Virus record (IMG/VR): IMGVR_UViG_2905894795_000003
Length of the DNA stretch: 64,000 nucleotides
Source: an uncultured virus (IMG/VR IMGVR_UViG_2905894795_000003)
Lineage: Duplodnaviria; Heunggongvirae; Uroviricota; Caudoviricetes
Reading direction: 5' to 3' (one strand)
In this document: positions 5,753 through 41,436 of the stretch, in pieces
Layout: each line of letters begins with the position of its first letter
Numbering within the stretch: position 1 is the stretch's first letter
The notes under the pieces: model-generated
Told to the model about the DNA's origin: nothing
Seen by the model: only the letters and a program-made list of their open reading frames with translations
Databases searched by the model: none
Translations under genes and position numbers: made by a program

Positions 5753-6176
5753 TTACGGTTTATCTGGCCAGGTAATTGCGCTATATCCCGTCTCATCGCC
5801 AACGCCGCTGAGATCCAGCTTTCGCAGCACTTTGGCGTATTTAGTCCACTCGATAAGGCTGGCTTTGTCGTCATCGCCGAGAATGCCTGCGCTTTCTTCT
5901 CTTTCCCACGCGGTCATGGTGGCGTTCGCAGCGGTGAGCAGGCTTTGACGTTGTGCTTCAGCTCTGGCCTGCCAGTCGATTACCGGGTCGGTCAGAACAG
6001 GCTTACCAGTGCCGTCCGGGGTAATGACCTTACCGTTTGCCTGACCATTGAGCAGAGTCTGGTATTGCTCATCCNACGGCATCGTCAGGCCAGCCGTCAG
6101 GAGAGGACTTATAATCATCTTCCAGCTCAGAGTGATAAAAGCCGTTATTTTTCGCACTGTAATAAATAGTATCCAT
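5753..6176 (-). CDS. tail fibre assembly chaperone (copy 1; spans N gap at 6075)
   Basis: MDTIYYSAKNNGFY...WPDDA...ITWPDKP; replacing the N with the 9 bp present in copy 2 restores a 143-aa frame. Confidence 0.85.
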
Positions 6177-6180
6177 ATTC

Positions 6181-7194
6181 TCACCAGCCTATAGCTTCCC
6201 AATACGCTCCGTTATTGTCCTGACCACATAAAAAACCAGCCTGCGTAACATTGCCTGCGGTTGCATAGTTATCTGAATAAACTGTGACACCATTATCTAC
6301 AGCAGTTACCTGCACGTTGGCGCAGGCATTTGGAAACGTGATTGGAAAATTAACTTGGTAATGTCCGCGAGTTCCGGCATTTATCGAACCCCACTGACGG
6401 ATGCGGCCAGTAGCGGAATTCTTTTCCCAGCCGCCCGCCAGATTAGCCGTTGCTGTTGTCACTGCGCCCGTCGCGCCGTTAACGCTCGTTACCGGATAAG
6501 GAGGCGGATTATTTTCGTAATACATAGCCCCCTCATCTGATGAGTCAACGGTCAGCCTGAGTTTCCCGTCAGCTCCCCAGCCAAGATAAATTTTATTAGA
6601 ACCCTGGTTTGCTCCCCCGCCCTGCTGAACGGCCACCCAGTTACCAACGTTTCCCAGACCTACATCTGATTTACCCAGGCTTACCGCACCTGTTTTACTG
6701 TTTACGCTGGTTACAGGATAAGGCGGTGGATTATTGTTGTAGAACAGCTCGCCCATTTGAGTAGAGTCTATCTGGAGAAGAGCTTTTTTGCCGTCCCAGC
6801 CTACATAGACCTTATTATCTTTCATGCCGGTGCCACCGCCCTGCTGTACAGCAACCCAGTTACCGACCTTATCAAGCGCAAGGGCTTCCCGGGCTTTGGC
6901 AGAGTCAGTCAGATCGGACAGGTTTTTATCTTTCTGCAGCGCACCGCTAACGCGGCTGTCGTCTTCTGCAAGAAACAGGACTTTCAGCGCCGTTAGTAGC
7001 TGATTAAGTTCACCTTTTTTTAGTGTTATATTCGCGGCCTCAATAACGGCGCAAACCTCTTCCTGAAGCGCATCAAACATGTCTGCATTAAGGTCTGTAG
7101 ACTGCCTGCCAGTTGACGGATCGCCATCTGTGAAGCCGTTTTTACCCTGCCCAAATTTGTCTTTCTGAGCCGTACTGGTGTCAATTCGATGCAT
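6181..7194 (-). CDS. tail fibre protein
   Basis: SfV-type N terminus [22 protein letters not shown]; two internal [12 protein letters not shown] repeats; QWG...FPITFPNAC...WEAIGW tip. Confidence 0.92.
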
Positions 7195-7786
7195 TTTTTT
7201 TGTACTCCGTCACTTCATCCTGCCCGTCGTATGCAAAAACAACTACGGTGTGCGACGGGCAAAGCTTGTCTATTACGCACTCAACAACGGTGTCGCCCCA
7301 CGTTCGGAGCGCTTCGTTACACTTGCTGCGACACGTCATGCGCTTTACGTTCGCATTTTCTGGAATGTTGACTTTCCAGTAATAGCGCCAGTATTCGCCC
7401 CAATCCGCATCAGGGGATTTGTCATCGTTTTGGTACTGCGTGATTGTGGTCGTCGTGTACCCCAAGGCGTCAAGCTGTCGGCGGTAAAACGCCTCATTTA
7501 TCCCACCATAGCCGTTGACCTTCGCATCGAGGCGGCGCTGTCGTTGCGCCAGTGTCTGTACGCCATCCGGCGCACATGCATCAGGAAGGCCGCAAAGTGC
7601 CTCATAGCGGTCGATAAGCTCCACTGTAGAACCGGGGTCTATTTCTGTGGTTAAGTCCTGTGTGCGTTTATGTACGCGAGCCAGAGAAGGGGCTAACCCC
7701 TCCAGCAACGCGTTATCACCCTCCCATGCAGGACCTGGTGGAAGAAGGTTCACCAGCAATCGGGTGTACTCATCCTGAAGAGCCAT
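7181..7786 (-). CDS. baseplate protein, YmfQ/DUF2313 (Mu gp48-like)
   Basis: [19 protein letters not shown]; sits between baseplate J and fibre. Confidence 0.88.
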
Positions 7787-8868
7787 CAGCCGTTGTCCTT
7801 CTTCTCATAAGTTACCCAAGTGATTTCACCCAATACCGGTAATTCATATTGGGAAAGCTCGATGTCGCCGGTAGGAACCTCAATTCGGTGTGCAACGTCT
7901 CCCGAAGCAAGGCTGATCGCTTCACTGAAATCAGAGTAAAAAAGTTTTTCGGATGGCTTACCGGCACGAAGAAGGAAAGATTTAAGCTCTTTCTGTGCAG
8001 CCTGACGGATAGCGGCGGTGTCTTTGGCTAACGCTATAGTCATGTCGATTTTTTTGGCCGTAGGCGCAAATATCGTTAAGCCAGAACCGGCTACCGGCGC
8101 TAACGGCAAAATGTGTTGTCGGACTGCAGCAATCAGCGTGTCATCGGGGATAGGTGAATCAGGATTACTGGTTGCCACCATCACGCCAACAGTGCCAATG
8201 CCTGAATAGTGACGATACGTCCACGCCCGACTGATTCCGGCGATATCGGTAGCCCAGATAACATAATCCTCATCCGCGCCGCCCTGCGGGGTGTAATACC
8301 AGCGGGCCATAATCCGTGATCGCCATTCCTCTATGCTTTCGATATCCGTACCGCCTTGCACGGTATCGGCATATCCGGTTGATGAAAGCCCGGAGACAGG
8401 CTCCAGCAGCCTCAAGGCTACCCCATCGTCCGTGTTCGCTGCTGTGCCTGCCGTCTCTGCCTCAATCGGCGCTCGCAATACCCCATCAGCAACAGTTGCA
8501 TCTGCGGTCGTGGAAAATTCTGTTTGATCGTCTCGCTGAATAAGCGTTCCTGCTGGCAGAGTAATGACGTTCTGCACGCCCTCCCAGCGCACATAACCCG
8601 CCGCTGTTGTAGCCTGCTTACGTGGGACTCGTTTCAGATTACCGTGACGCACAAGCCAGCTTTCGTCGGCCTGATCGGGTAAAATATTGCGGGCCAGATA
8701 ATCGAGGTATCCATAAAGCGTATGCACCGCTGCGGCCATTACTCGCGCATAAACCTCAGCATCGAGACGGCGCAACAATACGTCATCCTCAAAGCGGGTT
8801 AACAAATCACTTCTGATCGTGCTGATCAACTCAGGCAGTTCAGGACGAGAAAAATCACTGTCAGCCAT
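7786..8868 (-). CDS. baseplate J / Mu gp47-like wedge protein
   Basis: [26 protein letters not shown] motifs. Confidence 0.92.
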
Positions 8869-9277
8869 TCAAAACTCCTTGCCAGATATCGTCAAAAATC
8901 AGAGCGTGCCTGCTGCCGTCACGCTGCCAGATAACAACGCTCAACTTCAGCGATGAAAGCCCCGTGCGTGAAACATCAATATCAATCCGGGCCGCTACGC
9001 CGTCTTCAGTCATCCAGGCAAGCGCCTGTTCGGCATAGTTCCGCGCACTGGCAACGGTGTTATTAGTAAGTTTGCTACGACTAAGCAGCCACAGGCGCGA
9101 ACCAATGCGATCATTGGCTACTGTCGGGTAACTGTCGCCCCACCAGCCAAAAGGTCGCTCTGTGTCATCGTCAGGCTCAGCTCTGCGCCAGGTGAAGAGA
9201 GATATAATTACTGCTCGTGTTAAAGGGTCGGTTATGTCGCTGGAATCAGTGAGTAAGCCATCAACGTAATAAATCAT
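8861..9277 (-). CDS. Mu gp46-like baseplate protein
   Basis: AVIISLFTWRRA, GWWGD, IGSRLWLL. Confidence 0.92.
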   Translation of the reverse strand: MIYYVDGLLTDSSDITDPLTRAVIISLFTWRRAEPDDDTERPFGWWGDSYPTVANDRIGSRLWLLSRSKLTNNTVASARNYAEQALAWMTEDGVAARIDIDVSRTGLSSLKLSVVIWQRDGSRHALIFDDIWQGVLNG

Positions 9278-9285
9278 CAGTTACC

Positions 9286-9867
9286 TCAGCCCATAAGTTG
9301 ACCGGGTTTCTTGGTCGTGCCGCCCGTTGAGTCCACATGATCGTGATCGTCGTATACCTCCCGGATAGCGGCCATTGTTCCTTTGCCGTCACTCATATCT
9401 TCAGCCGCTTTAGCGCTACCCGACATATCCACCAGCGGGGTATTCATGGCCGCTTTGTTAGTAGCGTTAAGCTCAATATCAGGCGCAGTAAGGCCAATTT
9501 TCTTTGTTGCGGTGACTTTCAGCTCCCCCGTGGACATTTCGATAACATTTCCGCGCTTCAGCACTATGCTGTCGCCCTCGTCGGTATAAATGGCTACCTC
9601 ACCCTGTTTAAGCCCTTTAAGCCGGTAGCGGCGGTCTCCTACGGCCAGCACAACACCATGAGAGCGATCCCCTCCCGGAAACAGAATTACAGCCTCTGCA
9701 CCGTTTTGAGGGGCAGACGTGAAGCCGTAAGATTCGAGGTGCTCCACATTTTCTTTAAGCGAACCGGCCAGCATCTTCACCCCAACCATCTGACACTTCT
9801 TAGCTGTATCGAGGCCAGTTATCACGACGCGGGAAACGATGTTCGCTATGCTGCTTCTTATGCTCAA
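9286..9867 (-). CDS. baseplate spike, Mu gp45/V-like
   Basis: YGFTSAP, GGDRSHG, DRRYR and C-terminal HDH. Confidence 0.92.
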   Translation of the reverse strand: MSIRSSIANIVSRVVITGLDTAKKCQMVGVKMLAGSLKENVEHLESYGFTSAPQNGAEAVILFPGGDRSHGVVLAVGDRRYRLKGLKQGEVAIYTDEGDSIVLKRGNVIEMSTGELKVTATKKIGLTAPDIELNATNKAAMNTPLVDMSGSAKAAEDMSDGKGTMAAIREVYDDHDHVDSTGGTTKKPGQLMG

Positions 9868-10928
9868 AATGAATCGTCCTCCTGCTTTTTATGCTTTTTG
9901 AGTTTCGGCGGTTTGGGCAGGTACGCATCAGCAGGGCCAACCCTCAGCTCTGAAAGCGTGCCACTCTGGTTCAGGGTGTAGGTGACTTCAGCGATAACCA
10001 TTTCGCGGTTGTTAAAGCCCAAAACGGGGTCGTACACAATAACGCGCATGTTCGGACGCCATAGATCGCCACCACCCTGACGCCAGCCCTGTACGGTGTA
10101 AGTCGTTTCGTCAGTTTTGGCCGCACGTTGCTTTGCCTCAAATTCGCATCGATATTTGCAGGTCGCGGTTGTCGCCATGCCGGTTTGCTGTATCTGGTGT
10201 GGACGGTAACGCCCTACAGCTGCGTCTCTGGATGTGTTCTTAATGGCCGCAATCGTAGCCTCTCCAAAATCATCATCGTTCCCGGCTCGCTGGCCGCTTA
10301 CCTGATAATCAGAGAAACGCTCACGAATACTACGTTCGGTATCACAGGACAGGATGTTATCGCCCAGCACCAGCGCCGTGCTGGCCTTGCCTGAACCTAC
10401 CGTTCCAATAATCAACTGACCTTTCTCGTCGTCGTAGGCCAGCGCCTGACTCTGACCCAAAAGCCGGTTAAGAACGTCAACTACCGTTTCACCATGTTCA
10501 GGCTGCGCTTCAATAAGGGAATCGGTAGGCGCGCCATTGTCTATCACTGTGACGCCAAACGGCTTTGCCAGCGTGGTAGCGATCTGGATGAGCGTTTTTC
10601 CTGTGTGCTGATTGGCTACTGCTGAACAGTCAATCAGGTCAGCCGTCAGACTGCGGCCAACTATCGACATTGATATTGAGGTAGCGTCATAGCGCACCGG
10701 CAACGCCTCAACCCAGCCCGTTAAAACAAGGTCTGTTCCAATCAATACCTCAACCCGGTCACCATTTTTTATTTTGGGAACGGCTTTGTTTTCGTTATCG
10801 CCAGGCCACTGGCTGGTTATCTCAACATTAAAATCCCGCGCCATGCGATCAATGCCCGCACTGATACGTATCGACGTCCAGCCGCACCATTCACGACCGT
10901 TAACACGAAGGAATACTATGTTATTCAT
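9864..10928 (-). CDS. baseplate hub, Mu gpP/gp44-like
   Basis: GWTSIRISAGIDR, DLIDCSA, YTVQGWRQ. Confidence 0.9.
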   Translation of the reverse strand: MNNIVFLRVNGREWCGWTSIRISAGIDRMARDFNVEITSQWPGDNENKAVPKIKNGDRVEVLIGTDLVLTGWVEALPVRYDATSISMSIVGRSLTADLIDCSAVANQHTGKTLIQIATTLAKPFGVTVIDNGAPTDSLIEAQPEHGETVVDVLNRLLGQSQALAYDDEKGQLIIGTVGSGKASTALVLGDNILSCDTERSIRERFSDYQVSGQRAGNDDDFGEATIAAIKNTSRDAAVGRYRPHQIQQTGMATTATCKYRCEFEAKQRAAKTDETTYTVQGWRQGGGDLWRPNMRVIVYDPVLGFNNREMVIAEVTYTLNQSGTLSELRVGPADAYLPKPPKLKKHKKQEDDSF

Positions 10929-12268
10929 CTGACCGGCACCCTCAGTTGTTCAACAGGAACAAAGCCCGGATGCGTGACAGTGTTACGTGTGAGTATGTCT
11001 GTCTCGCGGCTGGCATCGTCGAACCACTCAGCGGCCAGCACCAGCGCTGGCAAAACATCTTTAGGGGTGCGCGTGACCGTCTTTTCAACCTGAGCCAGAC
11101 GAGAAGCAATGTCCCGATTAACAGAGGCCCGGAGGTTTGTCAGTGATAGAAAAAGAGTGTCGTTCGTCGTTCGCAGCTGTTCTTTGTCTATCGCGTCATT
11201 GAGCGCCGTTCTGATATCACTGAGATCATCCCAAGAGACGTAATCTGCGGGTTTGCTCGTTGCTGCATCTGCGTCCAGGGCAGGATGCGTAACATTCACG
11301 ATATCGGAAACGTTACGATTGATACTGCTGGCCGTACTATTACCGCTGTTTAATGAAGCAGCAGACTGTGCCGGCTGCGGAAGAAGCGCGACCGTTCGGG
11401 CCGCTTCGCTGATCGCTGTCGTTCGCACTGTTGCAGCAACAAGATTACTTAGCGACTTTTGCGTTTTTTGTGTGCCTGAATCGTTACCCCATACGCCACG
11501 GGGCGACAGGCCGCTATCCAGTGTTACGCCGGAGAACGTCTGGATCATCGTCGTCAGGTCTTTAGAGTCACCAGAGAGACGGGAACCGGTGCGCCACGCC
11601 TTTTGCAGTGCCTGAACAAAGTCATTTGAAGTGCTGGGCGGGCTAAGAAGAACAGATAAATCACCCTGCATTAAACGCATCGCTGCCGTTACGCCGGAAT
11701 CGATCATCTGAAAAGTGTTCGCTACATCATTCAGCATGGCCGTAGCGTTGCTGATTACATCGTCCTGAATGAAATGAACAACGTCATCCAGAGAAAAGGA
11801 TGAGAACATGTCACTGATCGCGCTATCCAGTGAATCAGCATCACCCGATAGCTTTTGTCCCGACGCTGCGCCAGCAGTAGGAAATGTCAGTTCGCCAGAC
11901 TCAACAAAAGCGAACGAGATCCGACACATTCTCCCTTCTGTGGTGCTGTGAGTAACCCTCACTTGCCCGTCAATATTGCCCTTCATTTCTCCATAGGTCG
12001 GGTGAACAAGCGTACCGGAACCTGCCGTTTCAATCGCGGTAATCAGCTTATCCCGCTGATCAATATAATTTTCCCCGATAATATAGGCATTAATATTGAA
12101 ACGTCTGGTTGCGCGGCCTAAGTCTTCTGTCCAGGGCTTATCCCGGTTAGGGTATTCATGTACCTGAACGCGTCGCCCAAACGTGCCTTCATCATCGACC
12201 ATACTAAATTTAACGCCGCGCCATGAAGCAGGGCGTAACCTTGAACGCCAACCTGAATCTACATCCAT
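10925..12268 (-). CDS. DNA circularisation protein, Mu gpN-like
   Basis: ASWRGVKF, GRRVQVHEYP, GTLVHPTYG, HPGFVP. Confidence 0.92.
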   Translation of the reverse strand: MDVDSGWRSRLRPASWRGVKFSMVDDEGTFGRRVQVHEYPNRDKPWTEDLGRATRRFNINAYIIGENYIDQRDKLITAIETAGSGTLVHPTYGEMKGNIDGQVRVTHSTTEGRMCRISFAFVESGELTFPTAGAASGQKLSGDADSLDSAISDMFSSFSLDDVVHFIQDDVISNATAMLNDVANTFQMIDSGVTAAMRLMQGDLSVLLSPPSTSNDFVQALQKAWRTGSRLSGDSKDLTTMIQTFSGVTLDSGLSPRGVWGNDSGTQKTQKSLSNLVAATVRTTAISEAARTVALLPQPAQSAASLNSGNSTASSINRNVSDIVNVTHPALDADAATSKPADYVSWDDLSDIRTALNDAIDKEQLRTTNDTLFLSLTNLRASVNRDIASRLAQVEKTVTRTPKDVLPALVLAAEWFDDASRETDILTRNTVTHPGFVPVEQLRVPVR

Positions 12269-12341
12269 AAATTATCTCCAATAATAAACCCGCAATGCGG
12301 GTTTATTTTTCGATGTAAACATTTTCATCACGACTACAGCA

Positions 12342-14228
12342 TTACTGAGGTTTTCGGAAAGGTGAATAACCAACATCAGATGTAACTCGCATATATGGAT
12401 CACCTGCTTTTGGATTGTCGAGCACTCGCATCCCTGGAGGAGCATTATCAAACGTTACTTTAAGTTCAGTCTGCTGTTTAGTTGGCGATACAGCACGGTC
12501 AAGTGGAACTAACGGTTTATAATCGTAAATATTATCAACTGGCCTTCCCTGCTTGTTAGCAATATTTACCTCGTTCTGATACCAACCGCCGTGCATCCTA
12601 TTTTTAAGTGACGTCCAAAAAGAATCAGTCCCATCCTTTTGCTTCACAGCTTCTTCAATTTCTTTGAGTTGGTTAAACATTTCAATAGCGACAGCTATAT
12701 ATATTGTCGTAGCTCCAAGTCCACCAATTTTTGACAAAACACCCTGTAACTTTGTAGCCACCGAAAGTGCGTCTTTAAGCGTACCCACAGTATTAAGAGC
12801 AAACTTCCCCCCCATATACAGAGAAACACCACCAGCAACAGACTCCCACCCACCCAATGCCTGAGCAACACCATCAATATCGCCCCACACCTCCCTGATA
12901 ACAGGACCAACCTGATCCCAATTGTCAATAATAAGATACGCACCACCCACCAGCGCAGCTATTGCCAGTTTTGCCGGTGACAAATCCATAACGTTATTAA
13001 GTATTTTCGATGCCTTAGACACTGCGCCTAATGCAAGACCAGTTCCGATAAGGGATTTAGAAAGATTCGCTATCTGCGAGATTGTTTCTGGATTTTTTTG
13101 CACAAACTCATCGAACTGTTGAATAAGTGGCACCATATCTTTAACTGCATCATTGATAGCAGGGAGAAACGTACTGCCAACATCAACCCCAACAATATTT
13201 AAATTATTGGAAAGTATTTTTAATTGTGATTGAGTATTCTTAGTTACCGCTTCAAATTCTTTCTGGGTAGAGCCTGTATATTTCTGCGCATCTGAAACAT
13301 CGCTAAAATACTCTTTCAACTTATCAAGATTGTTAAGCAATGGAGTAATAGCAGCTGAGGACTCACTACCAAAAAGCAGAGTTAATGCTTTGGCTTTTTT
13401 TGCTTCCGGTAATTTATTTATTCCTTCCAAAACCTTGACCATTGTTCCACGCGCATCTTTCACCATGCCATTAGCAACCTGTGAAGGGTTCATATGTATA
13501 GCGTGGAAAACTTTTTTAGCATTACCAGAGTTAGAACTTGTAAGTGCTTTAAAAAAGTTTTTAATACCAGTTGCAGCAACGTCGGACTGAACACCCACGC
13601 CCATTGTTGTTGCAGCAAGTGCCGCCAGGTCTTCTGCTGAAACATGTGCAGCTTTTGCAATACTTGATACATCTGTTACCACAGATGCAATCTGTGCCCC
13701 CGTGGCCTTACCATGACGGCCAAGATAACTAACCTGATCTGATAGTCTCTCAATATCAGCTTGGGGCATCTTGAAGGCTGCACGCCATGCTGTCATAGCC
13801 TGCCCGGCATCTTCCGCAGACATACCAAACGCCACACCTGTTTTTGCCGCATCTGTGGCGAATTGTTTAAGTTCAGTATGTGCAACACCAGCCTGGCCGG
13901 CTGCGGCAACAATCTCAGCTATGCCATCCGCTGACATTGGGATAGAGGAGGAAAGATCTAATATATCTCTGCCCATCTTTGCGAAAGCTTTCTGATCGTC
14001 CATCCCTTCGACAACCTTTCTGACCTCCGACATCTTTTCATCGAATTCAATGGCTTCATGAATGGGAACGGCAAACATTCCAGCAATACCAAAACCAGCT
14101 GTTGAAGCGATTTTAGAAAGAGAAGCCATCTCTTTCTTAAAACCTTTAACCTGCCGCTGCATTCCCTGTAGCGGCCCGGTTAATTTGTCAACGGCGGTTA
14201 TAATGGCTTTTAGTTCAAAACTATCCAC
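12342..14228 (-). CDS. tail tape measure protein (TP901-type core)
   Basis: 628-aa Ala-rich helical protein after the chaperone; FELKAIITAVDKLTGPL start. Confidence 0.9.
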   Translation of the reverse strand: MDSFELKAIITAVDKLTGPLQGMQRQVKGFKKEMASLSKIASTAGFGIAGMFAVPIHEAIEFDEKMSEVRKVVEGMDDQKAFAKMGRDILDLSSSIPMSADGIAEIVAAAGQAGVAHTELKQFATDAAKTGVAFGMSAEDAGQAMTAWRAAFKMPQADIERLSDQVSYLGRHGKATGAQIASVVTDVSSIAKAAHVSAEDLAALAATTMGVGVQSDVAATGIKNFFKALTSSNSGNAKKVFHAIHMNPSQVANGMVKDARGTMVKVLEGINKLPEAKKAKALTLLFGSESSAAITPLLNNLDKLKEYFSDVSDAQKYTGSTQKEFEAVTKNTQSQLKILSNNLNIVGVDVGSTFLPAINDAVKDMVPLIQQFDEFVQKNPETISQIANLSKSLIGTGLALGAVSKASKILNNVMDLSPAKLAIAALVGGAYLIIDNWDQVGPVIREVWGDIDGVAQALGGWESVAGGVSLYMGGKFALNTVGTLKDALSVATKLQGVLSKIGGLGATTIYIAVAIEMFNQLKEIEEAVKQKDGTDSFWTSLKNRMHGGWYQNEVNIANKQGRPVDNIYDYKPLVPLDRAVSPTKQQTELKVTFDNAPPGMRVLDNPKAGDPYMRVTSDVGYSPFRKPQ

Positions 14229-14312
14229 CCTTTATATCCTCATTGATGCGCACAGCTTCCGATTCTAATTCAAGAAACTGTCCGATTGGTTCCTTCATTA
14301 AAGAAAGAGGAT

Positions 14313-14660
14313 TTATTTTCCAGAAGTATGCTGTGTTGAAGATTCTTCTTCGGAGCCTTCCACTTCCGACGCATTCTGGATCCCCGACTGAGTAAAAAAA
14401 CCAACTATTAACATTGACGCTTTAAAAATATCGAAAAGATTGATTTTTTTAGCAGAACTTTTAGGGATTCCTGCTAGCACAGGTATGTACTCCAGACAGG
14501 CAGAGGAAAGTGGTTTAACCTCCCCATCACCTATTGAAAAAGGAAAGCCATATTTAGTTATTTCATCATAAGTCGGCTGCCTTAATTCCAGTACATGCAG
14601 TTTTTCGCCATGTGCAGTAATAGGAGAGGACAAAACCAACTCTTTCTTTTCTTCAATCAT
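14313..14660 (-). CDS. tail assembly chaperone; -1 frameshift form predicted to end at 14221
   Basis: Between tube and tape measure; T TTT TTT at 14394-14400 with an open -1 frame to TAG 14221. Confidence 0.85.
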   Translation of the reverse strand: MIEEKKELVLSSPITAHGEKLHVLELRQPTYDEITKYGFPFSIGDGEVKPLSSACLEYIPVLAGIPKSSAKKINLFDIFKASMLIVGFFTQSGIQNASEVEGSEEESSTQHTSGK

Positions 14661-15013
14661 TGGAAATCACCATTTTCACTGTGGAATTCTACTTCTACCG
14701 TACCTTCTTCGGGGTTGTAATTCATTTCCCCATGAACCCATGCATCGGAAAGCACATAAACCATTCCGTTAGCGAACTCAGAAGTTACTGTCATATTTTC
14801 AGAAGACGCCAGTTTTGAGAACGGAAATGTTTTAGGTACTTTTAGCGTAGCCTTTGTATACGCTGCCCGGTGTGTTTCCTTATAATCAACAGAACCATCG
14901 AGGCCAATAATATCATCCTTAACTTTAGTGTTCATCGGAACTTCAATACCACCAGTTGCGGATAATTGCTGTCCATCGACTTTGATATAACATGTACCAG
15001 CTAACTTAGGCAT
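14657..15013 (-). CDS. tail tube protein
   Basis: AGTCYIKVDGQQL, FANGMVYVLSDAW; follows sheath. Confidence 0.9.
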   Translation of the reverse strand: MPKLAGTCYIKVDGQQLSATGGIEVPMNTKVKDDIIGLDGSVDYKETHRAAYTKATLKVPKTFPFSKLASSENMTVTSEFANGMVYVLSDAWVHGEMNYNPEEGTVEVEFHSENGDFQ

Positions 15014-30186: not shown

Positions 30187-30237
30187 CACCCCCCCAAGCG
30201 ACACGGCGATCAAATAAATATTTAAATAATTAAATGC

Positions 30238-31088: not shown

Positions 31089-31303
31089 TTACCATCCTTA
31101 ACCATTTCAGTAATGGTGATAGGTGAGACACTTTCCAGCAGCAGGCGTGCGCGAGTTCCGGCTATACCACCGCGGCGGCCAGCCTCTTTGTAGTAATACT
31201 CTTTGCCGCTAACCACCCACGTTGTGGCGCTTTGGTGCAGCTTGACGCACTTTTCACCGTCTCGCGTGATTACAGTTCCTGTATGGGTTTTAACAGTCAT
31301 CAC
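31085..31303 (-). CDS. hypothetical phage protein
   Basis: KTHTGTVIT...RLLLES; coupled ORF. Confidence 0.6.
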   Translation of the reverse strand: MMTVKTHTGTVITRDGEKCVKLHQSATTWVVSGKEYYYKEAGRRGGIAGTRARLLLESVSPITITEMVKDGK

Positions 31304-31866
31304 TCCGCATCCTCTGCAAGCCTGCCAGTAATCTCGACTTCTGGCGCTTCAACCGCCACATGCGGGTTTGCCCTGGCATCGTGGGGCTGTTCATACATTG
31401 CAGCAATATCAGCACGGGCTTTATCGGCATAGTCGCGTGTGAGTTCTTCGGCAGTGGCATTGGGCAGAAATTCAAGCGCTGACAGAACCGCCCCGGAAAC
31501 ATCAGCAACTTCTGAGGGCGTAGCTTTGATAAAACCCGATTTCCATGCTGCCAGTATACGGTTAGCTGCAAAATGAATACCTTCAGCCCGAATGGCGGTT
31601 AGCTTCTCTCTGCTTTCTGCTGTTTTGGTTACAGCCGCGTAAGCGTCCCGCTGCTTGCGAAGATTCACTATAATCTGTAAAGCATCAGCGGCCAGCTCGG
31701 TAATATCGATATACGAGGAGGCTTCGCGGCCTGCTTCATCCTCCCCATAAATTTCAAATTCCCCGGAATCAATGTCGCTCATTTCCACGGCTGATATTTC
31801 GTGCAAAAACCATTCAACGTTTGATCCATAACGTAACTCGCGGTCGTTGTTATCCATCATCATCAC
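31300..31866 (-). CDS. Ead/Ea22-like phage protein
   Basis: RAEGIHFAANRILAAWKSGFI module. Confidence 0.65.
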   Translation of the reverse strand: MMMMDNNDRELRYGSNVEWFLHEISAVEMSDIDSGEFEIYGEDEAGREASSYIDITELAADALQIIVNLRKQRDAYAAVTKTAESREKLTAIRAEGIHFAANRILAAWKSGFIKATPSEVADVSGAVLSALEFLPNATAEELTRDYADKARADIAAMYEQPHDARANPHVAVEAPEVEITGRLAEDAE

Positions 31867-31891
31867 CTTTAATTAAAGAATTAAATATTTA

Positions 31892-32293
31892 TTACCGAAT
31901 CGCATCGTTTATGCTGATTAGCTTCTGCCGCTTCAGGTAGTTCATGGCGTCGTTCGCCATCATCACGCCGGGTGGGTTCGCGTTATTCCTCATCGAGAAA
32001 GAAAGACGTTTAATCCACATGGTCAGCTCAGCCACCAGCATTTCATTGTTGAGGCTGTCTGACTGCTTCTCCTCTGGTTGCCGCACAACAGGCGACACAA
32101 TCACCTCCTGCCCGGATTTAACAGATTCAACCGCTGCAACGCCGGTATTCAGCAAAACGCCCAGCACTGACAAAACATCATCGTTATTGTTGCAACGACA
32201 GTCGTTGATAAGCCGCTCAATGGCCGCTGCGGCCATTACCTGTACCTCATGCCTTTCAGGGCATAGCCCCGTTTCGTGATTTACATTGGTCAT
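31892..32293 (-). CDS. hypothetical phage protein
   Basis: 133 aa with AAGGA RBS; ELTMWIKRL module. Confidence 0.65.
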   Translation of the reverse strand: MTNVNHETGLCPERHEVQVMAAAAIERLINDCRCNNNDDVLSVLGVLLNTGVAAVESVKSGQEVIVSPVVRQPEEKQSDSLNNEMLVAELTMWIKRLSFSMRNNANPPGVMMANDAMNYLKRQKLISINDAIR

Positions 32294-32459
32294 AACATTA
32301 TTCCTTTTAAATAATTATTTAATTATTTAACGGCTCGCTAGCTATGAGCCGGATATCGCAACAGCAAAGGCGACAAAAAATGTCAGAATGAAGATGAATA
32401 GGGTGCCGCCTACGCATACGGCGATAAATTTCGCCCTACATAATAAAGAATTAAATAAT

Positions 32460-32855
32460 TCAATATTCACACAGAATCCCCAGCCGCTTAGCAAGATATT
32501 CAGCAACGAACCGCCGCGCCTTCTCCAGCTTGCGCCGGTAACGGATTAGCGGAATCCCCATCGCAGCAGACTTACCCAACTGTGTCTGAGGATTGCTCCT
32601 GAACCGCTTAACGCCATACTCAACACGCAAAACCCCGGCTGATAACTCATCCTGAATCTTCAGAAGCGCTACCGCCCCCTCGACGCTGGTTTCTACCGCG
32701 TCATTAGGTGCGCCGCCACCGCCTGAAAACTGGCAGTGCGTCACCATCATCATTTCTAAAATCGAAGCGAAACTACTTCCATATCCATAGCTGTAACCAG
32801 CAATCGCCCATCTGGCCCAAAGCTCCAGCAACTGATCCAGATCGCGGCGGTTCAC
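32460..32855 (-). CDS. putative Q-like late antiterminator
   Basis: LLELWARW N-terminal motif and C-terminal HTH-like segment; several terminators lie inside the late operon. Confidence 0.6.
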   Translation of the reverse strand: MNRRDLDQLLELWARWAIAGYSYGYGSSFASILEMMMVTHCQFSGGGGAPNDAVETSVEGAVALLKIQDELSAGVLRVEYGVKRFRSNPQTQLGKSAAMGIPLIRYRRKLEKARRFVAEYLAKRLGILCEY

Positions 32856-32857
32856 GG

Positions 32858-33217
32858 TTAAACCTCCGTAATTACGACCGGGTAATGAAACTCCACCAGC
32901 TTTTTCTTCGTTTTATATTCGGTAGTTCTCACACCTTTAACGTCGATTACAGCCACCTCTCCAGAGGCATAAAAAACAAGGAAGTCGGCTACATACTTAA
33001 CGCCACCGGGCAGGTGAAAAGGGGTCTGACGGAGAAATGTCACCACATCGCCTGCCATGACCTGACGCTTTAGCTGTACGTAGTAATTACACTCCTTCAT
33101 GCTGTCGAATCTGAAGCCGTCCAGCTCACAACGCTTATTGCGGTATTTGTTAGCAGTTGGCGCTTTGAATTTCGTGTAACTCAGTGTCGGGCGGGTTGTC
33201 GCTAATTGAGAGGTCAA
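32858..33217 (-). CDS. DUF1064-family nuclease-like protein
   Basis: NKYRNK, FDSMKE, YVADF, DVKG; start uncertain. Confidence 0.82.
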   Translation of the reverse strand: MTSQLATTRPTLSYTKFKAPTANKYRNKRCELDGFRFDSMKECNYYVQLKRQVMAGDVVTFLRQTPFHLPGGVKYVADFLVFYASGEVAVIDVKGVRTTEYKTKKKLVEFHYPVVITEV

Positions 33218-33581
33218 AACCTATCTCCTCTTTAATGTGATCGGGTATCTGCTCCCATGCATAAGCACACAGAAAAGCATCATCACCGTAGCGCTCACTG
33301 AAGCGTGGGCCATTACTCAGAATGGGATGGCGAACAGCTACATCTGACGCCGAACGGCAGGCACCAGGAATAACGCCGCGATGATGGACAGCACATAGAC
33401 CAAAACCCCGAAAGTGTGCGTTTCGGTCTGTGCTGCCATAGTCGGGATCATGATGAAACTCAGTCCATACAGCCGGGTTTTCAATATCGCGCCCATCAAG
33501 ACGACAGGCCACGCAGCCCACTTCTGATACGCAGGCACTTATATAAAGTCGCTCTGCCTTAGTTGGCGTTCTTCCGTTCAT
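33150..33581 (-). CDS. Ref-family (RecA-dependent) HNH nuclease
   Basis: GRTPTKAE, GCVAC, EFHH, LCAVHHR. Confidence 0.75.
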   Translation of the reverse strand: MNGRTPTKAERLYISACVSEVGCVACRLDGRDIENPAVWTEFHHDPDYGSTDRNAHFRGFGLCAVHHRGVIPGACRSASDVAVRHPILSNGPRFSERYGDDAFLCAYAWEQIPDHIKEEIGFDLSISDNPPDTELHEIQSANC

Positions 33582-33805
33582 TTGTGACGAATGCAGTAGC
33601 GGTTAAACTGAAAAATTAAATCGGTATAACGGCTCTGCGCCTCTTGATTGGTGTTCAGCTCACTGCGTGAAGCTATACCGCAACGGCGGCGAAGGGCTAT
33701 AGCAGCTTCTGCCTCATTAGTTACGGTGTCACCTGTGCAGGTAAGGAATTGCCAGAATCGAGGCATCTGGCAGAAACGTACCGCCCCCTTAACAAGCTGC
33801 TGCAT
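33578..33805 (-). CDS. hypothetical phage protein
   Basis: FWQFL, CGIASRSEL. Confidence 0.65.
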   Translation of the reverse strand: MQQLVKGAVRFCQMPRFWQFLTCTGDTVTNEAEAAIALRRRCGIASRSELNTNQEAQSRYTDLIFQFNRYCIRHK

Positions 33806-34244
33806 GGCGAAGTCTCCCGTTACGTCTCATCTCCGCAACTAAACAACGTGAGAAAGCCTCCTCCGGCGTGCAATACATCTTTCTCTTTGCTTCCGTTCCG
33901 CATTTGCCCGGACTCGACGTGACAAAAATAAACTGATCGTCGATTCCAACACGGCCAGACAACAGCACTCTGGGCAGAACGCCAGGAAGCACACAGAAAA
34001 ACGCGCCCCGCGCCCTTAACAGCGCTATTTCTTCCTCCCGAACAATGCCAGTAAATACAGTAAGCAGTTCAGGCCCGGCACCAGCAGCCGTCGCCGTGCG
34101 TATCGTGTTCAGCGATGCGCCTTCTTTACGGGATGAAAAGGTGATTTTGTGCAAACGGTAGTCAGGTTTGATGGCACGTTCCATTAGCGCAATCAGTGAG
34201 TTTTGCGCAGGTAAGTCGCTACCCATAAAGGCTAAAATCATCAT
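33789..34244 (-). CDS. hypothetical phage protein
   Basis: 151-aa coupled ORF. Confidence 0.6.
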   Translation of the reverse strand: MMILAFMGSDLPAQNSLIALMERAIKPDYRLHKITFSSRKEGASLNTIRTATAAGAGPELLTVFTGIVREEEIALLRARGAFFCVLPGVLPRVLLSGRVGIDDQFIFVTSSPGKCGTEAKRKMYCTPEEAFSRCLVAEMRRNGRLRHAAAC

Positions 34245-34729
34245 GACGCTAAAGCCCTCAGATTTTCACGGCGGGTTACTGCAATGGTTTCGTGAATGAG
34301 ATTTATATCGGACGGGTTTTTACCCAGTGAAGAGAGTTTTTCGAGGGCGCTACGAACTTCTCCAACTGTGACATTCGTAGTTTTCCAGCGGCACAAAATT
34401 AATTCAGTCTGCTTTTCGTCAACTTCAAAGCGAAGAGTCTGCTCTTCAAATATTTTTTTTAGCTTAGATAGATTGTTGACAAGAATGTTATTGCGCTGAC
34501 GGCGTTTACAGAGAACCCGTGCCTTGCTTTTCTCAGCTCGCTTGCTTAACAACAGATGAAAATCCACTTCATCGCTAAGTTTTTCTAACAAAGTCATCAT
34601 CATATCTGCTCTTGGATAACGATCACCACGGCAATAAGCAGATAATGTGGTGGCATTGACACCCAGTTTTCTCGCCGCAGATGCTATTGATCTTTCGCTT
34701 TCAACCCATTGCTGGAGACTGATCTTCAT
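34241..34729 (-). CDS. Cro-like HTH regulator with long C-terminal extension
   Basis: SIASAARKLGVNATTLSAYCRGDRYP; divergent from repressor. Confidence 0.75.
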   Translation of the reverse strand: MKISLQQWVESERSIASAARKLGVNATTLSAYCRGDRYPRADMMMTLLEKLSDEVDFHLLLSKRAEKSKARVLCKRRQRNNILVNNLSKLKKIFEEQTLRFEVDEKQTELILCRWKTTNVTVGEVRSALEKLSSLGKNPSDINLIHETIAVTRRENLRALAS

Positions 34730-34885
34730 AACCACACCTCGAATTAACAACACATAACGAAGTTACAGAAAATTCATATTGTGTGTCAACTCAAATTGAA
34801 GTAGTTAATTCAATTTGTAGCGGTTTTTTTTCACAGCTAGGATAAAATTTGCCACCCAAAATGCGAACATTTCACGGTTAACTAA

Positions 34886-35521
34886 ATGACAATCCAAACG
34901 CCAGAAATCATAGGGAAAAGAATTAAAGCGGCGAGACAACAAAAGGGCATAACAATCAAAGATTTATCTTTGTTAGTTAATTTGGCTCCATCCTCTATCC
35001 AGAACTATGAATCGGGGATCCGCCAACCTTCGCTTGACACACTCAAAGTTCTTGCAAAAGCTTTAGAGTGCTCTGCCGTTTGGCTTAGCACTCTTTCTGA
35101 CATAAATGAGGGTGCTGAAAATTACTGCTACAGCCTGATAAATCCAGTTGTACCCGGCAGACCGCCATTAGAGGTTGATTCGGTGATGTTTTCTGCAAAG
35201 CACATCGAAGCTCACGGGGCCTCTCCTGCTCTGACAAAATTAATTAAGGTTACAGATGATTACTTATTTCCCGATATTAGAGAAGGGGATGAAGTTTTAG
35301 TTAATACCGGCGATAAAAATATATCAGTCAAGGCTGATTTTTTTTGTTTCTCCGATGCTGCCCAGAAACCAATAGTTAGATGGGCACGCAGAGATATAGG
35401 ACAAGAAGGTTTTCATGTTTATTCGAATAACAATACTCACTCTCCCGAAGTATTTATTTCAGATAATACATGTACAGTTTTCATAATCGGAAAAGTAATC
35501 AGTCTTGTCAGATGGGTATAA
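34886..35521 (+). CDS. CI-like repressor (HTH plus degenerate S24 domain)
   Basis: RIKAARQQKG...IQNYESGIRQP; VTDDYLFPDIREGDEVLV; IIGKV. Confidence 0.88.
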   Translation: MTIQTPEIIGKRIKAARQQKGITIKDLSLLVNLAPSSIQNYESGIRQPSLDTLKVLAKALECSAVWLSTLSDINEGAENYCYSLINPVVPGRPPLEVDSVMFSAKHIEAHGASPALTKLIKVTDDYLFPDIREGDEVLVNTGDKNISVKADFFCFSDAAQKPIVRWARRDIGQEGFHVYSNNNTHSPEVFISDNTCTVFIIGKVISLVRWV

Positions 35522-36070: not shown

Positions 36071-36742
36071 ATGACGCTATCCATAGCTCTAATTGGAGGC
36101 AAGGGCGGGGTGACTAAATCAACAATCGCCCGCGCACTTGGCGTTGCATATGCTGCGGCTGATTGGCGTGTGCTGGGTGCCGATTTAGAACTAGGCCAGG
36201 CCACTATCAGAAAATGGGCTAAGCGGCGTGAAGAAGCAGGTTTTTTACCATCTGTGCCCGTTCAGTCCTTCGGTGCAGTATCAATGGCCGCGAAAGAAGT
36301 TAAAAACGGTTCATGGGACATCGTCATTCTTGACTGCCCGGCTTTCGCGTCAAAGTCGTCAATTGAAGTCGCAGAACTGGCTGACATGGTTGTACTGCCT
36401 ACCCGCTTTTCTATTGATGATATGGAAAGTACCGCCGAAACGGCAAACTCACTGGTTGTAGCGGGCGTTCAACCAGAGAAAATAGCAATCGTGTTTTCAG
36501 GGGTAGCGGAAGCAAGATCCAGTGCAGAACGTGAGCGAGATAACGAAGACGCACGCGCATATTTCAGTACAACACCCTATTTTGTGATTGATGGCTACAT
36601 CCCCCACCAGAAAGCCCTTAGCACAGCTCAGGATGTGGGAAGAACTATTACCGAATGTCAGTACAAAGGGCCACGAGAGAAAGCAGATCGTGTGATCCAG
36701 GGCATCATTTCACGTTTCGAAAGCATTACAGAGGACAAGTAA
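36071..36742 (+). CDS. parA: ParA-family partition ATPase (short, type Ib)
   Basis: KGGVTKST deviant Walker A, ILDCP, ADMVVLP; no N-terminal HTH. Confidence 0.92.
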   Translation: MTLSIALIGGKGGVTKSTIARALGVAYAAADWRVLGADLELGQATIRKWAKRREEAGFLPSVPVQSFGAVSMAAKEVKNGSWDIVILDCPAFASKSSIEVAELADMVVLPTRFSIDDMESTAETANSLVVAGVQPEKIAIVFSGVAEARSSAERERDNEDARAYFSTTPYFVIDGYIPHQKALSTAQDVGRTITECQYKGPREKADRVIQGIISRFESITEDK

Positions 36743-36744
36743 TC

Positions 36745-36975
36745 ATGGCATCACCTAAAAGACCACCACGCACTGCACCAACCATCGAACAAACAGCATC
36801 AGCAGTGCAGGCCACCAGCAGAGGGGCCAGAGAATCGAAAGGCGGAAAAGCCATGAATTTCAATGTTGATCCTGAGTTTTTTACAGAATATAAATCGTTC
36901 GCATCAATGAACAACCTGTCTATGAAACAGCTACTTGAAAATAGTTTCATGGAATACAAACGTAATCACAGTTGA
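36745..36975 (+). CDS. small ribbon-helix-helix partition protein (ParG/ParB-like)
   Basis: 76 aa right after parA; flexible N terminus then MNFNVDPEFFTEYKSFA...SMKQLL. Confidence 0.78.
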   Translation: MASPKRPPRTAPTIEQTASAVQATSRGARESKGGKAMNFNVDPEFFTEYKSFASMNNLSMKQLLENSFMEYKRNHS

Positions 36976-38716: not shown

Positions 38717-38744
38717 ATTTAACATATTGTATGTAACGCGCATC
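38717..38744 (-). other. dif/psi-like XerCD recombination site
   Basis: GATGCGCGTTA-CATACA-ATATGTTAAAT vs dif GGTGCGCATAA-TGTATA-TTATGTTAAAT (8/11 and 10/11). Confidence 0.78.
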
Positions 38745-39718: not shown

Positions 39719-40414
39719 TCAGGCAAGGGTTGGAGGAGAGTAATAATCTAACTTGCGTTGGCGGGCGGTTTCACGCTTTGCTTTCATCCGGGCTAACCCG
39801 GCTTCAGCTTTACGCTTCCAGTTTGCCACCCGGATCGAGATCAGACGAGCGTCCCATGAGGCAATGACTTCTTCTGGCGGGGCTTCCAGTAAACGCGCAC
39901 GTTCTCTGTAAACTTGCTTAAGCGGTATGCCCAGTGCAGCAAAAAAATCTTCTGTCACCTCAATATTTTTACAGGCACAGCGTGCATCGTAAGGATTAAA
40001 AGGGGCTTTTTCGGTAATGATCAGATTAAGCCATTGAAGGCGATCGCAACCCCGGCTTGCTCTTGAAGTCTGCTTACGACCCGTATCACTACGTGTTATG
40101 AGTCCAGCCCGTTCGGCCAGCGTTTCAAGATTGTGTCTGGTCTGCCAATCCCGCAAATCGAGATCGTCCAGAATAGCTAAGGCCAACTCACAAAGCGCAT
40201 CCAGCCCAAACTGGTTTGCCTCATTGACCCAATAGCGTGACAGCCTGATTCTGCGTCGAAATTCATTTCTGATTTTCTGACGACCGGCAGTTGTTGCGAG
40301 TGTGCGTATCCACCGGCTCAGAAAGCGGCGGCGTTTGCGCGAAGCAACGTTATAGCAGGGGGTTTGCTTTGGTATGCCCGCAGGAGAGCATGAAAGTTTT
40401 AGGCTATCAGACAT
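39719..40414 (-). CDS. repA: IncFII-family replication initiator RepA (divergent)
   Basis: LETLAERAGLITRSDTGRKQTSRASR...LNLI and VTEDFFAALG align with R1/R100 RepA motifs; cop/tap context. Confidence 0.85.
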   Translation of the reverse strand: MSDSLKLSCSPAGIPKQTPCYNVASRKRRRFLSRWIRTLATTAGRQKIRNEFRRRIRLSRYWVNEANQFGLDALCELALAILDDLDLRDWQTRHNLETLAERAGLITRSDTGRKQTSRASRGCDRLQWLNLIITEKAPFNPYDARCACKNIEVTEDFFAALGIPLKQVYRERARLLEAPPEEVIASWDARLISIRVANWKRKAEAGLARMKAKRETARQRKLDYYSPPTLA

Positions 40415-40478
40415 GTCCTCCTGCGCTTATTCTGCGCAGAAAGAGCATATACGGAATGTGTTGAGTTTTTCCGGGCAT
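40407..40478 (-). CDS. tap: Tap-like RepA leader peptide (23 aa; not in ORF track)
   Basis: Hand-translated MPGKTQHIPYMLFLRRISAGGHV; its stop overlaps the repA start. Confidence 0.85.
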   Translation of the reverse strand: MPGKTQHIPYMLFLRRISAGGHV

Positions 40479-40491
40479 TAGTTATACTCCC

Positions 40492-40583
40492 CTTCAGGTA
40501 GCAGAATACCTGAAGGTTGTTGTGATAGCCCCGTTAATCTTTCCTCGCCGGCCAAAGTGAAGAGAAGATTATCGGGGTTTTTC
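40492..40583 (+). ncRNA. copA: CopA-like antisense copy-control RNA
   Basis: TTGAGT-16-TATACT promoter (40461-40488); hairpin CCTTCAGGTA/TACCTGAAGG; long CCCCG...CGGGG stem with GGCCAAAG loop and T-run, as in IncFII CopA. Confidence 0.85.
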
Positions 40584-40875
40584 CTTTTCTGGCTCCAAAT
40601 AATTTTTTAGAACCAGCCCCGGCCACTTAACGGTGTGGCCAACCATGAAATTTTCAGAGACAAAGCTAATTACTGATATGCTTTAGCACATCCCGACACA
40701 TAATTTCACTTCAAAGTGAAGTGTCACCACAGATACGAAATATAACCCTAAAGCACACGAAGATCCACCAGCAAACAAGCCTTAGTCCTTCGTTTCGGTT
40801 AGATTTTGCTCTTTAAGCAGTAACTGCCTGATACTCAAGCCCCGTATCATCCTTCAGATTCCACAAGCGAACAAG

Positions 40876-40911
40876 CAAAAGATCCTGGATCCTTGAAAGG
40901 ATCCAAAGATT
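40876..40911 (-). terminator. terminator between tail fibre chaperone and rep region
   Basis: TGGATCCTT-TC-AAGGATCCA hairpin followed by CTTTT on minus strand. Confidence 0.55.
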
Positions 40912-41436
40912 TTACGCTATCGGCTTCTCCGGCCAGACAATCGCGTTATATCCCGCCTCATCGTTGACGCTGCTGAGATCCAGCTTTCGCAGCACTTTGG
41001 CGTATTTCGTCCACTCGATAAGGCTGGCTTTGTCGTCATCGTCGAGAATGCCTGCGCTTTCTTCTCTTTCCCACGCGGTCATGGTGGCGTTCGCAGCGGT
41101 GAGCAGGCTTTGACGTTGTGCTTCAGCTCTGGCCTGCCAGTCGATTACCGGGTCGGTCAGAACAGGCTTACCAGTGCCGTCCGGGGTAATGACCTTACCG
41201 TTTGCCTGACCATTGAGCAGAGTCTGGTATTGCTCATCCGAGACAGCGACGGCATCGTCAGGCCAGCCGTCAGGAGAGGACTTATAATCATCTTCCAGCT
41301 CAGAGTGATAAAAGCCGTTATTTTTCGCACTGTAATANACGGCATCGTCAGGCCAGCCGTCAGGAGAGGACTTATAATCATCTTCCAGCTCAGAGTGATA
41401 AAAGCCGTTATTTTTCGCACTGTAATAGATTGTCAT
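40912..41436 (-). CDS. tail fibre assembly chaperone (copy 2; 89-bp duplication at N 41338)
   Basis: Nearly identical to 5753..6176; 144 aa once the duplication is removed. Confidence 0.85.
   Translation of the reverse strand: MTIYYSAKNNGFYHSELEDDYKSSPDGWPDDAXYYSAKNNGFYHSELEDDYKSSPDGWPDDAVAVSDEQYQTLLNGQANGKVITPDGTGKPVLTDPVIDWQARAEAQRQSLLTAANATMTAWEREESAGILDDDDKASLIEWTKYAKVLRKLDLSSVNDEAGYNAIVWPEKPIA

Follow-up and report, generated by a model that had tools for sequence, protein, structure and literature searches.

A circular 35-kb myovirus genome with a plasmid replication module at the site of the integration genes is probably a phage-plasmid

The DNA analysed here is a 64-kb stretch, IMG/VR record IMGVR_UViG_2905894795_000003, which is called the window throughout and on which all coordinates of the element are given. 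Positions 6076-41248 of the window carry the genes of a contractile-tailed temperate phage together with a plasmid module containing replication, partition and toxin-antitoxin (TA) genes. We propose that this element is probably maintained as a free circle, i.e. as a phage-plasmid. A first-pass annotation, made from the sequence without database searches, had described it as a compact contractile-tailed phage-plasmid run by an IncFII-type antisense-controlled replicon. The features on which its outline depends are:

6076..41248, no strand: one unit of the circular element, 35,173 bp, 48.6% G+C
6076..6164, no strand: 89-nt repeat R, further copies at 41249-41337 and 41339-41427; assembly overlap in the tail-fibre-assembly gene tfa
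40912..41248, minus strand: 3' part of tfa, whose whole 145-aa open reading frame (ORF) exists only on the closed circle (start 6176)

The window is a scaffold and not continuous DNA. Single Ns at 6075, 41338 and 41753 are contig joins, and sequence is duplicated on both sides of each N. Exact copies of R are found at 6076-6164, at 41249-41337, where a contig ends, and at 41339-41427, where the next contig starts; near the third join there is a 215-nt duplicate (41548-41762/41814-42028). Because of this layout of R and the Ns, the stretch 6076-41337 is one contig with R at both ends, and these two copies close the element to a circle of 35,173 bp. R is located inside tfa, a gene shared with a neighbouring Mu-like prophage. 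Owing to the joins, some genes also look duplicated or truncated when they are not, as in the case of the tail-fibre ORF at 41788-42723.

Two further assemblies contain the circle. The de-replicated IMG/VR record G002 (35,300 nt, direct terminal repeats class) ends in a 127-nt repeat that corresponds to window 14640-14766, hence to another break-point. Without this repeat it is identical to window 6076-41248 (0 mismatches in 35,173), and the predicted join 41248|6165 is read through exactly. In the nearest genome, G001 (4.9 Mb, 50 contigs), contig C20 (35,707 nt) is circular with a 127-nt end repeat as well. It is 99.7-99.9% identical to the element with the exception of two places, the tail-fibre tip with tfa (window 41034-6725) and 30309-30719. 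Closing the circle restores an intact 145-aa tfa ORF, which runs from the ATG at 6176 to 6076 and continues from 41248 to the stop at 40912. The 89 nt of R represent an overlap in the assembly and not a biological terminal repeat. Thus, of the earlier claim that 89-bp terminal repeats close a 35,173-bp circle, the circle is confirmed by both assemblies and by the join, but the terminal repeats are not.

That the element appears inside the Mu-like prophage in the window is due to the joining of contigs at a stretch of tfa common to both phages: the scaffolder put the circular contig into the prophage at these 89 nt. In G001, a single 322-kb contig holds counterparts of window 5086-5861 (93%) and of window 42370 onward (97%); these are about 0.8 kb apart, and the element is absent from the gap.

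The plasmid module spans about 5 kb (about 35.9-40.9 kb) and occupies the place that int-xis has in related phages. Its features are:

36071..36742, plus strand: ParA partition ATPase (PF01656; NF041546, E=1e-21; PHROG 164)
36745..36975, plus strand: ParG-like small protein, 76 aa, with a disordered N-terminal tail and two C-terminal helices
38049..38637, minus strand: TA pair, Gp49/HigB-like toxin (38308-38637) and helix-turn-helix (HTH) antitoxin (38049-38327)
38717..38744, minus strand: Xer (dif/cer)-like core of 28 nt, a pattern match that is also present in G001 contig C20
39251..39427, no strand: probable origin, non-coding, with a DnaA-box-like TTATCCAC, a stretch of 85% A+T and inverted repeats
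39719..40414, minus strand: repA, 231 aa, of the short-RepA branch of the IncFII/IncL-M superfamily
40407..40478, minus strand: tap-like leader peptide of 23 codons, whose stop overlaps the repA ATG at 40414
40461..40488, plus strand: antisense promoter-like site, TTGAGT-16-TATACT, just upstream of the CopA-like RNA
40495..40590, plus strand: CopA-like antisense RNA with two stem-loops and a U-tail (RF00042 match at 40501-40586)
40700..40727, minus strand: promoter-like site for the repA mRNA, a consensus match only
40884..40907, minus strand: weak terminator-like hairpin after tfa

Behind tfa, the same strand carries the leader with its 23-codon ORF, repA, a non-coding block, the Xer-like core, the TA pair and three small unknown ORFs. 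The genes for ParA and the 76-aa protein lie on the opposite strand to repA and are co-directional with the cI-like repressor gene. Plasmid genes for replication and for partition are both represented, RepA and ParA each being recognised by homology.

RepA matches PF02387 at 15.4 bits (E=0.013, cut-off of 22.9 not reached) and NF040977 (RepA_IncFII_LM) at 37.7 bits (E=1.8e-9, cut-off of 70 not reached). When aligned by hhalign to a canonical 291-aa IncFII RepA, encoded on G001 contig C27, it gave a probability of 89% with E=2e-6 and 31% identity over 123 columns. It is 60-81% identical to a 'RepA family replication protein' in 432 PLSDB records, 348 of which are typed as conjugative; one of these relatives is a 21.7-kb Serratia plasmid typed IncFII, MOBC and MPF_T. 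No match to RepA was found among 50,697 phage records, nor did its profile match any PDB entry. NZ_CP073960.1 (44.9 kb, partial RepA match) was considered as a relative and rejected, as it is an ordinary IncY plasmid.

Loci sharing RepA were collected from 10 species-representative genomes and two PLSDB loci (12 in total), and DNA was aligned for 11 of them. The alignments cover repA (68-74%) and the block 39251-39427, not the leader. This block keeps a fixed distance behind repA and is 74-78% conserved in 10/11 plasmid relatives. Within it, the DnaA-box-like TTATCCAC at 39293-39300 is part of an inverted repeat, and a perfect inverted repeat of 16 nt is located at 39334-39371. It is probable from this conservation and content that 39251-39427 is the origin. 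The TA pair is present at 6/12 of the loci (62-65%) and ParA at 3/12 (41-44%); phage genes of the element were found at none of them (0/12).

At Rfam gathering thresholds nothing was found in the whole window, and both CopA and PK-repBA emerged only in a scan by E-value. The CopA-like RNA scored 46.6 bits against RF00042 (E=1e-6, gathering score of 60 not reached), and the leader scored 38.1 bits against PK-repBA (RF01089; gathering score of 45 not reached). Folding is more stable than for shuffled sequence, with z=-3.4 for the antisense RNA and z=-6.1 for the mRNA leader; in both cases 0/200 shuffles fold as well. In the predicted fold, the Shine-Dalgarno sequence of repA is paired in a hairpin inside the leader ORF. 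Two canonical IncFII replicons can be aligned with the leader, beginning at the upstream hairpin and reaching as far as the repA start codon. These two comparators possess CopB, and score 68 and 84 bits for CopA and 92 and 100 bits for RepA. Compared with annotated tap/repA regions, the leader shows 71-73% identity in at least 5000 plasmid records. A match to copB (PF10723) was not detected among the 55 ORFs that were scanned.

Leaders of the short-RepA relatives match PK-repBA at 66-105 bits in 5/5 scanned cases, and the distal pairing partner of PK-repBA is not recognisable in the leader of the element. In four relatives (L001, L014, L016 and L019) the leader loop covaries with a distal stretch before 'ATAAG', just 5' of the repA ribosome site. 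The loop/distal pairs are TTGGCG/CGCCA, TTGGCGG/CCGCCA, TTGCCGG/CCGGCAA and TTGGCGA/TCGCCA. Such natural covariation supports the PK-repBA pseudoknot in plasmids other than IncB/I.

Since RepA belongs to the short-RepA plasmid group and the leader aligns with IncFII leaders, the replicon appears to be a hybrid of an IncFII-type control region and the RepA and origin of the short-RepA plasmids. It is also possible that the leader has merely diverged within one lineage. The IncFII-type antisense-controlled replicon of the first-pass annotation hence holds for the control region, which is homologous to IncFII tap/repA leaders, but RepA stays under the PF02387 and NF040977 cut-offs. Similarly, of the proposed copA-tap-repA-ori array the coupled 23-codon leader, repA and a conserved ori block were recovered, but CopA remains under its gathering score with 46.6 bits. 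The check suggested there, a profile search of RepA against IncFII_repA, failed at the PF02387 threshold (15.4 against 22.9 bits), and homology is nonetheless indicated by NF040977 (E=1.8e-9) and hhalign (89%). Beside the element, G001 contains a canonical IncFII replicon on contig C27 (locus L008, 1176-2615) with CopB, CopA at 83.5 bits and the 291-aa RepA. The replicons of the element and of C27 are probably compatible, because their antisense loops differ.

For the 76-aa protein, the two C-terminal helices are confidently predicted and the best PDB match is insignificant (E=0.13). A ParG-type ribbon-helix-helix fold fits this model and is not proven. The earlier pairing of parA with a ribbon-helix-helix gene is accordingly secure for ParA and consistent with the prediction for its partner. 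The A+T-rich repeats between 35976 and 36054 may serve as the par site. The TA pair predicted previously was recovered by Pfam, and is 62-65% identical at the amino acid level to the pair adjoining RepA in the plasmid relatives. An Xer site had been predicted too, and the Xer-like core was found at the position given above by means of a pattern derived after the site had been seen. The pattern occurs only in the window and in C20 and is absent from the plasmid relatives tested.

Sequencing runs X1, X5, X6 and X11 were compared as Logan contigs, with depth taken as word depth. In run X1, from which this DNA may stem, one contig extends across 30354-41240. One 12.8-kb contig of run X11 joins 31860-34390, parA and 38913-40541, the cI region being replaced. 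In run X5 one contig covers repA-copA-tfa (39626-41240), and phage genes are found in addition; in X6, a plant metagenome, both modules are present at 85-99%. Judged by these contigs, at least three further studies contain linked phage and plasmid modules, and their immunity regions are different. Word depth in X1 is 80-82 for the element; an unrelated contig of 15 kb from the same genome has 83. These values correspond to about one copy per chromosome.

The phage part was analysed by scanning 55 ORFs against Pfam and PHROGs, and 53 proteins were compared with those of phages SfV and EPP-1. Its virion and lysis genes are:

6181..7194, minus strand: tail fibre with Gp53-like C-terminus (Pfam/PHROG)
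7181..17099, minus strand: Mu/SfV-type contractile tail, from gp48, baseplate J, gp46, gp45 and the gp44 hub to the sheath
17270..19074, minus strand: tail terminator, neck, head completion and head-tail connector (Pfam/PHROG)
19105..25353, minus strand: HK97-type head and packaging, with capsid, S78 protease, portal, large terminase subunit (TerL), P27-family small terminase subunit (TerS) and HNH endonuclease
25362..28313, minus strand: lysis region with lysozyme, two holins, three unknown ORFs and an Rz-like spanin

A continuous run of minus-strand genes (6181-25353) leads from the tail fibre to the HNH endonuclease. Its tail part additionally encodes a protein resembling the DNA-circularisation protein N, the tape measure, a chaperone, the tube and a sheath with two Big_2 inserts. 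Pfam and PHROG assign a P27-family TerS, TerL, portal, S78 protease, HK97-type capsid, connectors, sheath, tube, tape measure, baseplate and fibre to the virion, and two holins, lysozyme and an Rz-like spanin to lysis. The set of virion, packaging and lysis genes is complete, as in a phage-plasmid, and agrees with the HK97 head, Mu/SfV-type tail and lysis genes named in the first-pass annotation.

The tail sheath (15006-17099) comprises 697 aa compared with about 498 aa in SfV, owing to two inserted Big_2 Ig-like domains, and the major capsid protein (19105-20580) has one such domain at its C-terminus. At the DNA level the Big_2 segments of sheath and capsid are 81% identical over 251 nt (16080-16330 versus 19108-19358), which suggests that the domain was copied recently between head and tail genes.

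The early and immunity region comprises:

29125..34753, minus strand: early/regulatory operon with an HTH protein (cro/cII-like), a Ref-like nuclease, a DUF1064 resolvase-like protein, an Rrf2 regulator and unknowns
34792..34817, no strand: operator-like palindrome of 26 nt between the divergent repressor genes
34886..35521, plus strand: cI-like repressor (HTH_3, weak S24 peptidase match with E=0.011)

A divergent HTH gene of 170 aa (34241-34753) faces the cI-like repressor gene. A cI/cro-like set, as expected from the first-pass annotation, is thereby present; the Q-like gene was not corroborated, its sole hint being PF06530 with E=0.068 for 32460-32855. A six-frame search of G002 gave 0 matches to tyrosine integrases (PF00589) and resolvases (PF00239), with 14/14 and 12/14 control genomes responding, respectively. 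Replication initiators of the phage O/P type, primases and helicases were not found among the 55 ORFs (Pfam/PHROG). Both absences had been noticed before the searches were made.

The core of the palindrome recurs with 2 mismatches at 28719-28740, between the spanin and regulator genes and at the start of the plus-strand ORF 28721-29101. This second copy could link late or lysis expression to the repressor. At the repA promoter no copy of the operator was found within 2-3 mismatches, the sole look-alike being the one at 28719-28740. Internally, the two strains differ in a single segment (30309-30719), which lies in an unknown early gene of 198 aa (30238-30834). Short pieces of this gene were found in other contigs of run X1, and it looks like a recombination hot spot common to other prophages.

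The Mu-like prophage comprises window 3.2-6.07 kb and 41.3-64 kb and has 60% G+C, compared with 48.6% for the 35-kb contig. It encodes the gpT head protein, Mu portal, Mu F, gp36, gp37 and protease I, and is adjoined by yeeO and amn; a D12 adenine methylase gene (3558-4367) lies near its end. G001 carries a related copy at another chromosomal site, and its yeeO site is empty. Such differing sites fit a transposable phage. The tail-fibre tip and tfa form a cassette common to the element and the Mu-like prophage, with 87-100% identity (5756-7000 versus 40921-42500). The left flank (5756-6055) is 95% identical to 40921-41220, and the right flank (41.9-42.5 kb) is 87-89% identical to 6.4-7.0 kb. 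Co-resident phages evidently exchange host-range modules, as far as these alignments indicate. G001 contig C20 (6700-7767) carries a different tail-fibre tip/tfa cassette, despite 99.7-99.9% identity elsewhere.

Megablast of window 6076-30000 (24 kb) retrieved nothing from the phage records and, from PLSDB, nothing except 333 nt of tfa. In IMG/VR, RepA and ParA matched only the record itself. The nearest portals, at 79 other IMG/VR loci, are 68-78% identical; RepA, ParA and TA genes were not seen at these loci, whose 10-kb flanks stop short of that region. Three PLSDB records with similar TerL (CP088862.1, NZ_CP149982.1 and NZ_CP081794.1) were rejected as relatives. They are prophage-like; an integrase is encoded by two of them, and plasmid replication genes are annotated in none. 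This check covered 3/22 PLSDB records with at least 60% TerL identity, so that co-occurrence of TerL and RepA in PLSDB is not fully excluded. E. coli plasmids with phage genes and of the size of p-p47, a phage-plasmid family described below, were not among the 90 listed of the 432 RepA matches. Among the phage-plasmid papers retrieved, as judged by titles and abstracts, none describes an SfV-type phage-plasmid. The absence of close relatives from phage, plasmid and IMG/VR collections favours the undescribed lineage that had been suggested as a possibility.

Taken together, we put the probability at about 80% that a temperate myovirus with a separate circular genome of 35.2 kb (6076-41248) is maintained here as a low-copy plasmid prophage. 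Circular contigs in two assemblies, the lack of an integrase and a plasmid module at the int site of SfV and EPP-1 support the compact contractile-tailed phage-plasmid proposed at the outset. The element most likely persists as a free low-copy circle because integration genes are replaced by genes for replication, partition and addiction. Several points weigh against this interpretation. The extrachromosomal state rests on the assembly topology of contigs, and the scaffold of the window itself places the element within the Mu-like prophage. G002 may stem from the same isolate as the window, which leaves G001 as the only independent strain. The depth in X1 fits a one-copy plasmid and an integrated state equally. 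The matches of RepA, CopA and PK-repBA are all below curated cut-offs, the promoter-like sites are not above shuffles (2 found versus 2.9 expected), and lytic DNA amplification is explained by no gene of the element.

The scaffold order and the depth could also be read as a cointegrate, in which the element is integrated by homologous recombination of its tfa with that of the Mu-like prophage and the circles are an excised or replicating minority. The contigs of the window do follow each other in the order A-B-C with 89 identical nt, about 320 nt of flanking sequence match at 95% identity (5756-6055 versus 40921-41220), which is enough for RecA, and the element is about as deep as the other contig of its genome. 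Nonetheless, single-N joins with duplicated overlaps are typical of scaffolding, and two assemblies resolved the 89-nt repeat into clean circles broken at arbitrary positions, where a mixed graph would break at the repeat. As G001 moreover contains the prophage junction without the element, and a full plasmid maintenance set is present with no integrase, we regard a cointegrate as quite improbable. Likewise unlikely in our view is a plasmid with a defective or cryptic prophage that replicates and no longer yields infectious particles. The failure to find a lytic replication gene would agree with it. On the other hand, every virion and lysis gene that was found is an intact ORF, gene order is conserved, and identity to functional phages is 40-90% except for the tape measure (22-23%). 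The element is also 99.7-99.9% conserved between strains, the host-range tip excepted, and diverged relatives retain both modules, which argues for selection on the whole element. A chimeric assembly of a phage contig and a plasmid contig, which the N-joined draft assemblies nearby might bring to mind, is very hard to maintain: single contigs cross both borders of the plasmid module (30354-41240 in X1, 12.8 kb in X11, 39626-41240 in X5), as do the circular contigs G002 and C20.

For the phage-plasmid, the following life cycle can be proposed. In the lysogen, the cI-like repressor would shut off the leftward early and late operons. RepA would fire the origin at 39251-39427 with the help of host DnaA. 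Copy number would be set as in R1/R100, i.e. a CopA-like RNA of about 95 nt would pair with the stem-loop of the repA leader and stop translation of the 23-codon leader. Since the ribosome site of repA is locked in a hairpin inside the leader, repA would be translated solely by coupling to it. ParA and the ParG-like protein would segregate the copies, the Xer-like site would resolve dimers, and the HigBA-like pair would kill cells that lose the element. Upon induction, an HK97-type head would be filled, probably from cos ends cut by terminase and the HNH protein, and a virion with contractile tail would then spread the plasmid.

More tentatively, and with considerable doubt, the element may represent a young, independently formed lineage, in which an SfV-type myovirus swapped int-xis for a plasmid backbone of about 5 kb with a recombinant replicon and a single copy-controlled plasmid origin serves lytic synthesis too. 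The dependence on a single plasmid origin for lytic DNA synthesis is suggested because there are no phage replication genes. One possible lytic route would be that late transcription passes tfa and the weak terminator at 40884-40907, continues into repA and thereby overwhelms CopA.

Phage-plasmids carry genes both as viruses and as plasmids. The lifestyle and CopA-type control in a phage-plasmid are already known; the backbone of this element seems not to be among the described groups, and the element is unusually small. If our interpretation is true, a 35-kb element set apart from ordinary integrating phages by little more than the exchange of one module would illustrate cleanly, in nature, how a prophage turns into a plasmid and how control of plasmid copy number is tied into the life cycle of a virus. 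There is also a practical warning: common tail-fibre cassettes let scaffolders bury such circles in chromosomes, where they are counted as ordinary prophages.

Among known phage-plasmids, P1 is a contractile-tailed temperate phage whose prophage is a low-copy plasmid equipped for partition, addiction and the resolution of dimers. It is about 95 kb in size and uses an iteron replicon, a separate lytic replicon and Cre/lox. The element has no megablast or RepA match to P1 among the phage records. In a review, a table contains eight enterobacterial and Acinetobacter groups of 55-111 kb (PMC11652158), and IncFII types are listed there in the P1 and pMT1 groups (PMC11652158). According to a preprint of 2026, the p-p47 family consists of E. 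coli phage-plasmids that possess a RepA with CopA/CopT copy control (10.64898/2026.08.19.745698). Its members have 42-56 kb, come mostly from E. coli, show copy-up mutations in the predicted CopA/CopT, are untypeable by MOB-suite and stand outside the ten recognised types; 80% coverage is the authors' criterion for the family (10.64898/2026.08.19.745698). With 35 kb the element is smaller than these 42-56 kb, a comparison made with the description of p-p47 only. The earlier statement that known phage-plasmids use other replicons is thus only partly true, given the IncFII types in the P1 and pMT1 groups and CopA/CopT in p-p47 (PMC11652158; 10.64898/2026.08.19.745698).

The closest phages are SfV, ST64B, SfI, SfII, SfIV and the Edwardsiella phage EPP-1, which are temperate myoviruses with an HK97-type head and a Mu-type tail like the element. 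Their virion genes are arranged as in the element, from HNH-TerS-TerL to tail fibre-tfa, and their TerL is 85-90% identical to that of the element at the amino acid level. In SfV 19/53 and in EPP-1 21/53 proteins are common to the element, all of them encoded by virion and lysis genes, whereas none of its early, immunity and plasmid genes match SfV or EPP-1. Behind tfa, SfV carries gtrV-B-A, int and xis, and behind tfaE, EPP-1 carries a tyrosine recombinase; in the element, both are replaced by the plasmid module. The SfV-like phages also carry a phage replication protein, which the element lacks, while sheath and capsid of the element have extra Big_2 domains.

With the IncFII plasmids R1/R100 the element shares a two-stem-loop antisense RNA and a short leader translationally coupled to repA, both predicted from its sequence, as well as a hairpin over the repA ribosome site and a DnaA-box origin behind repA. 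Unlike R1/R100, it is without copB, and its RepA has 231 aa instead of about 290. The short-RepA group consists of mostly conjugative Enterobacterales plasmids of 21-34 kb, e.g. NZ_CP018922.1 (IncFII, MOBC and MPF_T by MOB-suite). These plasmids are free of phage genes (0/12 loci) and have a PK-repBA leader, unlike the element. In common with it they have a RepA that is 75-81% identical, the same ori block and the order RepA-ori-toxin-antitoxin(-ParA).

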